Sequence record: OP617743.1
Origin: Klebsiella phage KP13-26
Reading direction: 5' to 3' (one strand)
Length of the DNA stretch: 64,000 nt
The position numbers and the translations under genes are program-made. Shown in pieces: positions 16,296-55,415 of this stretch. The stretch's first letter is position 1. Each line of letters begins with the position of its first letter. Under the pieces are notes generated by a model, which worked only from the letters and a program-made list of their open reading frames with translations, made no database searches and was not told the DNA's origin.

Positions 16296-16311
16296 AACAC
16301 CATTTCAAATA

Positions 16312-16340
16312 GGGCGCACAAAGCGCCGTTTCTTTTTGCT
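16312..16340 (+). terminator. Rho-independent terminator ending the early block
   Basis: GGGCGC-ACAAA-GCGCC stem followed by GTTTCTTTTTG. Confidence 0.6.
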
Positions 16341-16499
16341 TATCATTTAATGATAGCTTTTACCGATTGAAATCACTCACAGCAAAAAGTGAATAAATCG
16401 CGTTATGAGGTTTTCTAAGCAAGGTTGACTAACTACCAGGGGCAAGCGGTAAGCCGCTTAGAACGCATTACAGGAGCTTTAAAGGGCATAGCCACTATC

Positions 16500-17250
16500 T
16501 AAGTGATCAATAAATCCACCAATTTAACGATCTAATCAATAATGATAATCAATCTCATCTATCTGTGCTTAATTATGCAGAATATTGCATAATGTGATAG
16601 TGAGAATCATTTACAATCAAAGTAACAATTGACAATTTATCCAATCATAAACAATCAAATAATAAATAGATAAATAGTTATCTTGCTAACATATCTAATT
16701 GATATCATTTCATTAATTAACAATAACACAATAAAACAATCAACTAATCAATAATAAGCAATGAAATTATTATTAATCTACAATTCATTCTTACAATAAT
16801 AATCTATGAAATAATTAGCAAAGAATGTATTAGCAAGCCTACGCGGGAAACGTAGGCTGCTAATAATACCGCAACTACACCACCCCACTCATTACTATTC
16901 CTAATAGTAATTCGTGTTATTATGTAGCTTGCAATAATTGCAAGCGTAATGCTTCCGCTTACAATCATTACGTGCGGTATTATTAGCACGTTGTTAAATA
17001 ATCCTAGAGGTATTATTAGCTATCAAAGAATATCTAATAACCTAACGGTATTATTAGCCATATTGGAAATGGCAATAATGCCCACTATCACGAAGTGATA
17101 AACATACGGAATTATTAGCACACAAAGCAATTAGCATTCTAACAGAATAATTCATTGTGAAACAATTAGCACACTATCTATTTGCGGAGGAATTATTGAG
17201 TGAATAACGAAAATAATTCTATAGCTAATGAATAGCATTGTAATTATTAA
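16500..17250. other. AT-rich non-coding region with iterons (GGTATTATTAGC x4), a TTGCAATAATTGCAA palindrome and a CCTACG/CGTAGG hairpin; candidate replication origin
   Basis: No plausible ORFs. Iteron-like sites at 16975, 17008, 17046 and 17107, with an inverted copy at 16861. Confidence 0.45.
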
Positions 17251-17756
17251 GGATTAAATAATGAAAAGAATAACTATTGTCGGCGAAAACATTAGCGCGA
17301 TCAGCGCTATGTGTTGAGCATTAATGAGAATAAGAATTAATATTATTCGGGCGAGCAAATGCCCACGAAGTGGGCTATTGTTGAGCACAGAGCTAATACT
17401 ATTTGCGGGGAAAACATCGTTAGATGTTCGTTAGAACAGCTACGGAATGTTGAGCCACTTCTTTTAAAAGAGAAATTTTTAGGAATTATCTTGATTTTCG
17501 AGCCGTTTGATGCTATGCGCAGCATACCACTGTTCACTTATACAGTGGATTTGTCATGAGAATCGTTATCAGTCGCCTTTTGTGGCAATTTGGCACCTTG
17601 TAAACACATGTTTATTAATGCCAAGCCATTGATTTATAAGGATTTATTGTCAGTTTATCGTGATTGGCATGGAATATGGCTAATCTTTGACCAAAAGTGT
17701 CGTAAGTTATTGAATGATATTAAGAATGAGAATGATTCGCATTGATATTTGGGACT

Positions 17757-53041: not shown

Positions 53042-54010
53042 TTAGATACCAATAGTTGTATTGGCACGTTTTTCTTTATTACGTAGGTTAATACGCCCAC
53101 GAGACAAGCTGTTGCAAGAGGAGCAGCGCAACACTTGGAATGTACTTACCGTGGTATGATAAAACTTACCAGGTACAATTTCTAAATGATCCTTCCCACA
53201 ACGAGGACAACGAACATTCTCGTCTTCGTAATAAGCTGACAGATTAGGATGTTGAGGAATCCACGCCAAGATTTTAATGTACAAATCACGTAATGAAACT
53301 ACATCCCCGTCATTATATGTTTGCATACGTTCGAAAGCACTTTTATCACCTTCGCAACAAGCTTTCCACAATGGGAATCCTTCATTATCTAGCTTTTCGC
53401 TTTCTGTTTCAAAGTATGCACCCATTTCTTTTAACGAGTTGGACGGTAGCGCAAACTGTTTCTTGGCTGCTTTCAATGTGTCTACAACAACATACGTAGA
53501 TGGTGGTTTCATACCATGATAAGCAAATCTTTGATTAATGTAGGCTCTATCAAACTTATACCCATTGTGTGCGACAACCACATCAGCATCATCTAGAATC
53601 TGCCATAGGTCTTGACACAATTCCCAATCATCTGTATGATCGATATCGAACAACGGGTATGAAGTTAAGTTCTTACCTTCTACTTCTCCTGTATAAAGAT
53701 CAGAAATAGAATAAGACAACAGATAACCACGTTTAATAACTTGATCTGGTGAAATAAAAGCTTTGAAACGGCGGAAACTATAAACAATTTCCGGGGCTGT
53801 CTCTACGTCAATGATTTTGATTACAGGCTGTTTAATTCCATCTGCAATATCCCTGACTTCACTAAGACTCTCGCCACGTGCAAGAAAATCATTTACTGTG
53901 CTCTTTCTACTGGCACTTCCTAGAACTTTAGCTGCAATGTGTCTTGAAGAATAACCCGCAGCTTTCATCGATGCAATTTCGATTTTCTGTTCATTTGTTA
54001 ACTTACTCAA
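53042..54010 (-). CDS. DnaQ-like DEDDy 3'-5' exonuclease with N-terminal HTH and C-terminal zinc ribbon
   Basis: Exo I IIDVETAP, Exo II HNGYKFDRAY, Exo III YNDGD, CPRCG...CSSC. TTG start after AGAGGAGGAAG. Confidence 0.6.
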   Translation of the reverse strand: MSKLTNEQKIEIASMKAAGYSSRHIAAKVLGSASRKSTVNDFLARGESLSEVRDIADGIKQPVIKIIDVETAPEIVYSFRRFKAFISPDQVIKRGYLLSYSISDLYTGEVEGKNLTSYPLFDIDHTDDWELCQDLWQILDDADVVVAHNGYKFDRAYINQRFAYHGMKPPSTYVVVDTLKAAKKQFALPSNSLKEMGAYFETESEKLDNEGFPLWKACCEGDKSAFERMQTYNDGDVVSLRDLYIKILAWIPQHPNLSAYYEDENVRCPRCGKDHLEIVPGKFYHTTVSTFQVLRCSSCNSLSRGRINLRNKEKRANTTIGI

Positions 54011-55122
54011 ACTTCCTCCTCTTCTGAGATATAGCTCTGAAGCATACTCTCAAATGTTGTTTCATCTTTATCCCAACGTTTCATATAAACCAACTGGAAT
54101 ATTGTTTCTAGCCATTCATCAGTAGTCAGATATACATCTACCCCATCGAAAGATGTAAAAGTAACTCCTGTAGGGAACCATTCATAGTACTGGTCTTTTA
54201 CGGTTTGGAATAATTCCGCTTGGGTTTTACACTGAGATATTAATTTATAACATGTCATATCGCCAAATTTAATATCAAAATCTTGGTATGGGCGGATACT
54301 ATCTGTTTTATCTCCCATAAGCATCTGGTATGCTAACCAATAACTACCCCAGCCCTTAACCTCTTTCTTTTTACTTTTTTCTACTACCCAAATATCTCCG
54401 ATAGAGTCATCTATCAGAATTATCTGAGGTGTTTTAAACACACCATCTTCTTTATAGAAGTTGAATAGTAAACTAGGAGTGGATAAGCTGTCCTTATCTA
54501 TTGAGCACACTACGTATGAAAATTTCCCTGTTTTAAGGTAATCTTGGTATCCCGTATACCCATATTTTTCAAGTTCATCGTCTGCTTCAATATCTGTGAC
54601 TACATCCCCGTTATGTTGTTCCACAAGGTAGTTTTTAGTCTCAGATAATTGTAAGGGTTTTATTTCAGATCTTTCAGATTTGTATTCTGTTGGCATTTGG
54701 AATAAATGCCGGAATGTTTTACCTACACCAATAACGCCACGGTATTTTGTTACTTTGAGATGGTCTAAAATACCACCGATTTTTGTTTTTGCTGCTTGAA
54801 AAGTGAATGCAATGTTATCAGGAGCAACTTGAACATCTTCAATGTCAAAATCTTCTTTTGAGAAAGTTTTTTTGCCTGCCTTCTCTCTTGAGCTATTTAA
54901 AGCTCCTAACCAACCCCCAATGGTTGTTTTACTACTTCCCCAAAAATCGGTACGTTTATCAAACTCTTTTGTGTTCCCGGAAGATTTGTGTATAACTTTG
55001 ATTGAACGTTTCTCTAAAGCAGATGCGGCTTGGAAAGCAATCTGATCATAGTCAATTACAAGTGTTGTATTTTCATCAATATACTTATGTAAATCTTCCG
55101 GCTCTATTAATATGTAGCCGAT
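54007..55122 (-). CDS. FEN-family 5'-3' exonuclease / RNase H-like; N-terminal 145 codons lack a canonical start
   Basis: The track ORF 54007-54696 carries DIEADDEL and GDKTDSIRPY (H3TH) blocks. Its upstream in-frame extension 54697-55131 carries the FEN N-motif TLVIDYDQIAFQAAS but has no ATG, GTG or TTG. A possible ATC start at 55122 follows AGGAGGG. Confidence 0.45.
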   Translation of the reverse strand: MGYILIEPEDLHKYIDENTTLVIDYDQIAFQAASALEKRSIKVIHKSSGNTKEFDKRTDFWGSSKTTIGGWLGALNSSREKAGKKTFSKEDFDIEDVQVAPDNIAFTFQAAKTKIGGILDHLKVTKYRGVIGVGKTFRHLFQMPTEYKSERSEIKPLQLSETKNYLVEQHNGDVVTDIEADDELEKYGYTGYQDYLKTGKFSYVVCSIDKDSLSTPSLLFNFYKEDGVFKTPQIILIDDSIGDIWVVEKSKKKEVKGWGSYWLAYQMLMGDKTDSIRPYQDFDIKFGDMTCYKLISQCKTQAELFQTVKDQYYEWFPTGVTFTSFDGVDVYLTTDEWLETIFQLVYMKRWDKDETTFESMLQSYISEEEEV

Positions 55123-55131
55123 ATTACCCTC

Positions 55132-55341
55132 CTATTCATCATCCTCGTCGGTTGAAAATGTCTTTGTATATGGACATTGACGATTTACAGATACTTCGTA
55201 GGTGAAGTCATAATTTGAGTTAGAATAGAAACAAACTTTTGTATCACCACTCACAGTTTCTCCTGAATTTGGAATGGTTATTTGCCCTGCTTTTGCAGAA
55301 GCACTTGTGATTAATAATAAAACAAGTAGAATGTTCTTCAT
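55132..55341 (-). CDS. small secreted protein (69 aa) with signal peptide
   Basis: MKNILLVLLLITSASA/KA. Its TAG stop is in-frame with the FEN extension. Confidence 0.5.
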   Translation of the reverse strand: MKNILLVLLLITSASAKAGQITIPNSGETVSGDTKVCFYSNSNYDFTYEVSVNRQCPYTKTFSTDEDDE

Positions 55342-55415
55342 AATATTATCCTCATAATGCCCACCTAACTAAGTAGGAGGGCATGTTAACACAAACGAAG
55401 TCCGTAAGTCAAGCG

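Follow-up and report, generated by a model that had tools for sequence, protein, structure and literature searches.

How is the full-length flap endonuclease (FEN)-type nuclease of Klebsiella phage KP13-26 translated, when the codons for its N-terminal part offer no canonical start and follow directly, in the same frame, on the stop codon of another gene? The phage belongs to the phi92-like group (Stephanstirmvirinae), and the gene lies on the minus strand of the 64,000-nt stretch of record OP617743.1 that was analyzed here, which we refer to as the window. Comparison with related phages makes it very likely that translation begins at an AUC codon (55122..55120), separately from the upstream gene. 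The features of the locus, including those of the upstream open reading frame (ORF), are as follows.

54007..55122, minus strand: full-length FEN-family 5′-3′ exonuclease gene, 371 codons plus TGA (54009..54007), beginning with ATC
55120..55122, minus strand: putative initiation codon ATC (AUC in the mRNA), from comparative evidence
55127..55133, minus strand: Shine-Dalgarno (SD) sequence AGGAGGG, read directly, overlapping the TAG of the 69-aa ORF
54697..55119, minus strand: N-terminal codons 2–142 of the nuclease, absent from public annotations, holding D24, D26 and four core β-strands
55056..55045, minus strand: IDYD motif with the invariant D24 and D26, from the homologue alignment
54694..54696, minus strand: internal ATG (Met143), the gene-caller start of a truncated 229-aa product, from the ORF list
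54301..54591, minus strand: C-terminal acidic motifs of the nuclease, IEADDE (54591..54574), DKD (54498..54490) and GDKTD (54315..54301)
55132..55341, minus strand: upstream 69-aa signal-peptide ORF, beginning MKNILLVLLLITSASAKAG, with its TAG at 55134..55132, from the ORF list

The original prediction for this DNA described a stretch upstream of the 229-aa ORF that is open but devoid of ATG, GTG and TTG, and that runs in frame into the TAG-terminated signal-peptide ORF. Both points are borne out by our reading of the sequence. The TAG sits 9 nt ahead of the ATC, in the same frame, and is followed by the bases GAG GGT AAT ATC GGC TAC ATA TTA ATA (start region, TAGGAGGGTAATATC). From the ATC down to the TGA the nuclease frame contains no stop, and no canonical start codon (ATG, GTG or TTG) occurs in it before the ATG at 54696, which is codon 143 when the ATC is counted as codon 1. 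With the codon usage of the window, a given stretch of 142 sense codons lacks all three codons with P ~7 × 10−4, and ~0.4 such start-free runs are expected per window; the second-longest run comprises 107 codons. No further protein-like open frame that lacks a canonical start was found when the window was scanned. The total absence of canonical codons up to codon 143 is an accident of this lineage that exposed the problem, because relatives carry canonical codons at codons 12–36.

The nuclease and its N-terminal segment

The motifs on which the assignment to the FEN family was originally based (TLVIDYDQIAFQAAS, DIEADDEL and GDKTDSIRPY) are each found in the nuclease frame. PHROG 107 ('exonuclease') matches residues 9–366 of the nuclease with an E-value of 2e-58. 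The 142-aa N-terminal piece and the 229-aa annotated piece match adjoining positions of this family (110–186 and 190–378, respectively), and the N-terminal piece matches it by itself (E=2.5e-8). A Pfam scan of the full nuclease and its halves returned no family, including PF02739 and PF01367; PF02739 matches 2 of 23 homologues, with a best E-value of 2e-5. PDB sequence searches with the single nuclease and with a 23-sequence profile gave no match.

The predicted structure, a model built on the 23 homologues, has a mean predicted local distance difference test score (pLDDT) of 94.2 and a predicted template modelling score (pTM) of 0.87. It displays a PIN-like α/β core, a helical arch and a helix-three-turn-helix (H3TH) region, and is superimposable on solved FENs. 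Strands 20–24, 38–45, 92–99 and 126–136 all fall in the unannotated N-terminal part, and the model supports the folding of both pieces together into one FEN-like domain. Residues D24, D26, E179, D181, D209, D211, D271 and D274 are invariant across the 23 homologues, and are candidates for the conserved carboxylates (N-terminal Asp, E-x-D, D-x-D and D-x-x-D) that would bind two metal ions, with a spacing pattern like that of T4 RNase H and T5 FEN. The nearest known enzymes are T5 D15 (1ut5, 5hmm), T4 RNase H (1tfr), and the bacterial ExoIX and FenA. The gene product is a 371-aa protein of the phage replication module, whose predicted activity is that of a flap-endonuclease-type 5′-3′ exonuclease.

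The ratio of nonsynonymous to synonymous substitution rates (dN/dS) of codons 1–142 ranges from 0.06 to 0.23 against eight relatives, where dS is estimable, with synonymous sites near saturation. As judged from these sequence comparisons, the segment is under purifying selection, and hence would be translated and needed, as is also indicated by the PHROG matches, the predicted fold and the invariant residues. The original claim that a complete FEN requires the 142–145 codons upstream of the annotated ORF is accordingly supported by four observations: the adjacency of the two pieces within PHROG 107, the single fold, the location of D24 and D26, and the purifying selection.

These observations also bear on the idea that translation from ATG 54696 yields the sole product, of 229 aa, and that the 142 upstream codons are an untranslated remnant. 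All close GenBank records annotate precisely this product. These annotations are automatic, however, and two of the four records fill the resulting gap with two spurious antisense ORFs. The supposed remnant is under purifying selection and stop-free in every relative, it carries the invariant D24 and D26 as well as four core strands, and no SD-like purine run was seen (by eye) directly before ATG 54696. We consider a product of 229 residues alone to be extremely unlikely.

The putative initiation codon across related phages

To compare start sites, the homologous start codon was located by script in every fetched locus, and all counts below refer to distinct start contexts. In tblastn alignments, relatives of 73–79% identity align from residue 1 or 2 of the nuclease. 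In a protein alignment, the first residues of homologues of 37–46% identity (MGY, MGF or MNY) fall exactly on I1-G2-Y3 of the nuclease. The start codons, grouped by identity to the nuclease, are distributed as follows.

At least 60% identity (17 distinct contexts): ATC 10, ATT 5, ATA 2, canonical 0
49% identity: CTG 1, ATA 1
37–45% identity (Vequintavirinae-like and others): TTG 14, GTG 2, ATG 6
Below 37% identity: ATG in ~25 of 32 contexts, seven other picks

In several of the seven other cases below 37% identity an ATG is found only a few codons away, and the script probably picked the wrong codon. An ordinary ATG at this position in relatives, the finding that would have spoken for a conventional start, was looked for, and no relative with an identity of 49% or more has one. 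Each codon used by these relatives (ATC, ATT, ATA and CTG) differs from AUG at a single position, which is what decoding by the initiator tRNA would lead one to expect. An AGGAGG or GGGGG core lies 4–5 nt upstream of the start in 19 of 19 contexts of at least 49% identity, where the duplex with the anti-SD sequence amounts to −9.3 to −12.2 kcal/mol. The corresponding values in the window are a 5-nt spacer between the AGGAGG core (55133..55128) and the ATC, and a duplex of −10.7 kcal/mol. The distance from the stop codon of the upstream ORF to the nuclease start is 8–15 nt in every relative with an identity of 60% or higher.

The flanking stop codons delimit the start further. Four of the fetched loci (L019, L097, L098 and L100) have an in-frame TAA immediately ahead of the ATC, and the first canonical codon is also codon 143 or 144 in L004, L098, L101, L020 and L105. 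Since L098 combines the TAA before the ATC with the lack of a canonical codon until codon 143, its protein can begin only at the ATC or a neighbouring AUH codon (H being A, C or U). Frameshifting, considered as a means of entering the nuclease frame from upstream, was rejected on account of the TAA that abuts the ATC in the same four loci, together with the position of the Met of distant homologues on the same codon.

The original prediction had offered three explanations for the missing start: initiation at a rare AUC or AUA codon behind AGGAGGG, amber read-through or suppression, and an assembly error. The comparative data favour the first over the other two. A sequencing or assembly error that removed a canonical start or feigned the frame continuity has a negligible probability, and nothing was found in its favour. 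The junction TAG-GAGGGTA(A/G)T-ATC is common to KP2025, FKP3, two phi1_175008 records, Logan SRR30397360 and the metagenome contig ERZ1026872, and a near-cognate start recurs in ~19 diverged contexts. The identity of the region is 99.4% to KP2025, and 94–96% to FKP3 and phi1_175008. This explanation is refuted by independent sequencing, since four GenBank records, from three phages, share the junction with a Logan contig and a metagenome contig.

Several points weigh against initiation at the AUC codon. Codons 4 and 6 are also near-cognate codons of the Ile type (ATA in the window, and ATA, ATT or ATC across the phages) and may add to initiation. A plain internal Ile codon would likewise drift among ATC, ATT and ATA, and the AUC codon is marked as the first solely by the stop codons beside it, its replacement by CTG in one relative and its alignment with Met. 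The absence of ATG in ~19 related contexts does not constitute statistically independent evidence for selection. A literature search for N-terminus, toeprint or start-site profiling data for any member of the family found none.

The first of these points can be extended into an alternative, in which translation starts a few codons downstream, at one or several other near-cognate codons (ATA, codons 4 and 6). These two codons are ATA, ATT or ATC in nearly all relatives, and their distances from the SD sequence (14 and 20 nt) still permit its use. Spacings of 14–20 nt are poor, however, while the 4–5 nt that separate the SD core from the ATC are the usual optimum, and it is on codon 1 that the Met of distant homologues falls. 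Moreover, codon 1 is CTG in L030, where the sole other nearby near-cognate codon (ATC, codon 7) has an SD duplex of just −2.2 kcal/mol. A downstream near-cognate start is thus improbable, and the AUC at codon 1 is preferred.

The RNA around the SD sequence and the start shows no significant structure (z −0.69). A hairpin located just 3′ of the start (CGGCU/AGCCG), with a few apparently compensatory changes, has a consensus of merely 4 bp and −2.1 kcal/mol; it was rejected as a feature because complementary Gly (GGN) and Pro (CCN) codons explain the pairing.

The upstream stop codon and the CUA tRNA

If the TAG of the 69-aa ORF were decoded, perhaps by a phage suppressor tRNA, the product would be a 444-aa fusion with an N-terminal signal peptide. 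The TAG is in phase with the nuclease frame in the window as well as in L004, L016, L101, L103 and L104. In addition, the closest relatives, KP2025 and phi1_175008, encode a tRNA with the anticodon CTA and an encoded CCA end, a finding that also counts against initiation at the AUC. A gene call from Logan (P0001, 444 aa) even shows the fusion, with Q at the position of the TAG. This fusion is artificial and comes from a gene call that translated TAG as Gln. The underlying DNA reads TAG, which rules out P0001 as a sense-codon variant at this position.

The arrangement of stop codons in other relatives is incompatible with a conserved fusion. In L102 and the phi92/PaulScherrer type, 8 nt separate the upstream stop from the start, which puts the two out of phase. 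L019, L097, L098 and L100 carry a second in-frame stop (TAG..TAA). ESCO5/L020 and L028 have TAA in place of TAG, and L021/PsgM04F has TAA-TAG, which is not in phase with the nuclease. FKP3 retains the TAG-ATC arrangement, yet has no match to the CTA tRNA, which itself has two mismatches in the anticodon stem. TAG is a normal stop in the window, since it ends 16 of 121 crude ORFs, whose downstream extensions are ordinary. A Sec signal peptide would also take a replication nuclease out of the cytoplasm. The in-phase 9-nt arrangement itself is accounted for by the overlap of the TAG with the SD sequence and the 5-nt spacer that follows. With the upstream stop out of frame, doubled or TAA in many relatives, the conserved amber read-through fusion that had been suggested is refuted. 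Read-through cannot be the family-wide mechanism that makes the nuclease, and it is very unlikely to be the explanation for the window.

No tRNA genes were found within the window. The CTA tRNA, of the amber-suppressor type, is located at 6695-6769 of L109 (139694-139768 of KP2025, PP919962.1), outside the region equivalent to the window. Apart from KP2025, the two phi1_175008 records were the only ones to match it, and FKP3 and the E. coli relatives gave no match. Minor read-through of the TAG is possible in the Klebsiella-phage lineage that has the CUA tRNA. As a more remote variant, such read-through might add a second, signal-peptide-tagged isoform in this lineage.

Another tRNA of KP2025, also outside the window (L109 12573-12650), is encoded by one of three tRNA(CAT) genes and is initiator-like, with the 5′ end CGCAGGGTGG and a mismatched 1:72 pair. 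Bacterial initiator tRNAs are marked by three G-C pairs in the anticodon stem, which this tRNA does not have, and any tie to a non-AUG start is pure speculation.

Neighbouring genes, annotation and possible translational control

Three further features flank the nuclease gene and the 69-aa ORF.

53042..54010, minus strand: DnaQ-like 3′-5′ exonuclease, the next gene, from the ORF list, the annotations of relatives and a Pfam RNase_H_2 match on the Logan orthologue
55383..55412, minus strand: promoter-like TTGACT-18-TAACAT (with TG), a candidate from a consensus scan, located between the rdgC-like gene and the 69-aa ORF
55359-55382, minus strand: imperfect 9-bp stem-loop GCCCTCCTA-CTTAGT-TAGGTGGGC, directly after the promoter-like site

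The 69-aa protein belongs to PHROG 4641 (unknown function; E=2e-16) and to the phi92 gp086 family, and the phi92 record gives a SignalP annotation for its orthologue. Its gene adjoins the FEN gene across the subfamily. The label 'gram-negative pili assembly chaperone' that the protein carries in KP2025 looks spurious, because only PHROG 4641 matches and the protein is far too short. The stem-loop would sit at the 5′ end of a presumed transcript of the 69-aa ORF and the FEN gene; in a scan of the region for promoters and terminators, sites were no commoner than in shuffled sequence.

On the other side, the TTG start of the DnaQ-like gene overlaps the stop of the nuclease (GTTTGA) and lies behind a GAGGAGG located within the C-terminal EEEEV codons of the FEN gene, so that weak starts with strong SD sequences recur in the replication module. 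FKP3 and one phi1_175008 record start the DnaQ-like gene 14 codons later, at an ATG. Elsewhere in the window, the largest stretches without a canonical-start ORF of at least 50 codons, by a crude greedy call, are 2235-2711 (477 nt), 16296-16803 (508 nt) and 16990-17358 (369 nt).

In all eight examined records, phi92 included, the annotated nuclease lacks between 11 and 143 codons. KP2025, FKP3 and the two phi1_175008 records give the nuclease as just the 229-aa ORF that begins at ATG 54696. The annotated start of phi92, PaulScherrer and Paula is a GTG at codon 29, inside the catalytic DYDQ|VAF motif, and the phi92 curators remarked on this internal GTG, 'No RBS identified; weak Prodigal statistics' (RBS, ribosome-binding site). 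PsgM04F has an annotated start at a TTG (codon 12) and ESCO5 at an ATG (codon 144). The annotated starts of the relatives of 73–79% identity are arbitrary internal codons. FKP3 and phi1_175008 (PQ360875) also list two antisense 'hypothetical proteins' (120 and 204 nt) within the unannotated N-terminal region of the nuclease; their counterparts in the window, by length, are 54680-54799 and 55002-55205 (both plus strand), and they are most likely gap-filling artefacts. Standard gene callers accept only ATG, GTG and TTG, and the resulting truncation error is carried over into protein databases, into domain models and into comparative work. The N-terminal segment of the nuclease is carried by 133 GenBank records at an identity of at least 60%.

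We propose that the region consists of two separate genes, a small secreted protein that ends at the TAG and a 371-aa nuclease that starts from the AUC. The strong SD sequence AGGAGGG, 5 nt upstream and overlapping the stop of the first gene, would position the AUC as the start. The initiator formylmethionyl-tRNA (fMet-tRNA) would pair with this codon with one mismatch, presumably decoding it as fMet, and the predicted N-terminus of the protein is Met-Gly-Tyr-Ile-Leu-Ile (MGYILIEPEDLHK; phi92 counterpart MISGYILIQPEDLHK). Ribosomes that finish the 69-aa ORF 9 nt upstream would probably re-initiate at the AUC, adding to initiation, and the geometry suggests that the nuclease gene is probably translationally coupled to this ORF.

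AUA, AUC, AUU and CUG initiate at 1–2% of AUG in E. coli, and an AUC start gives an N-terminal Met by mass spectrometry; infC and pcnB are the only confirmed non-canonical starts in that organism (Hecht et al., bioRxiv 10.1101/063800). Initiation factor 3 (IF3) discriminates against AUU, AUC and AUA, a property exploited in the autoregulation of infC, where the AUU or AUC start is the target (He et al., PMC5499595). Re-initiation after an upstream stop needs the initiator tRNA and initiation factor 2 (IF2), and is lowered by IF3 (Yoo and RajBhandary, PMC2268962).

The nuclease gene resembles E. coli infC (encoding IF3) and pcnB (poly(A) polymerase I; AUU) in having a near-cognate AUH codon as its sole start, conserved among orthologues. 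Expression of infC and pcnB is held low or depends on discrimination by IF3. Unlike these two, the phage gene encodes a DNA nuclease, has no evident feedback loop, and starts with different codons (AUC, AUU, AUA or CUG) in different members of the clade. A second parallel is Enterococcus faecalis ebpA, whose true rare start lies upstream of an annotated ATG and was likewise predicted in silico from a missing N-terminus. The ATT start of ebpA attenuates expression relative to ATG, as proven by mutagenesis and reporter fusions (PMC4447247); while that start is experimentally confirmed, the phage nuclease start is predicted from comparative genomics. As in translationally coupled phage gene pairs such as M13 gene V-VII (PMC2268962), the upstream stop precedes the downstream start by a few nt. 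In contrast to M13 gene V-VII, the nuclease gene has a strong SD sequence, and de novo initiation is also possible. A literature search for an earlier description of a non-AUG nuclease start in phi92-like phages found none in the papers it covered. The phage nuclease is a new, clade-wide example of the known AUU-class starts.

Throughout the clade the start is AUC, AUU, AUA or CUG, and in the next more distant clade it is mainly UUG; a strong SD sequence accompanies it in each case. This pattern suggests selection for low expression. Over-produced phage 5′ nucleases have been reported to be toxic, and expression of the nuclease, possibly harmful in excess, may depend on IF3 or on coupling. It is conceivable, although we regard it as doubtful, that the near-cognate start is more than a matter of annotation, namely a selected, subfamily-wide control device that holds the nuclease at ~1–2% of AUG initiation and ties it to IF3 and to translation of the upstream ORF. 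Such a device would imply control of the dosage or timing of a potentially toxic nuclease during infection, and the succession from ATG (remote homologues) through TTG (Vequintavirinae-like) to AUH or CUG (Stephanstirmvirinae-like) would then represent a stepwise tightening. Confirmed AUU-class starts are very rare in bacteria, and the start described here would belong to a conserved replication gene of the widely studied phi92-like group and its relatives. The gradient of start codons across these phages offers a natural series in which start-codon strength could be related to nuclease dose in infection.

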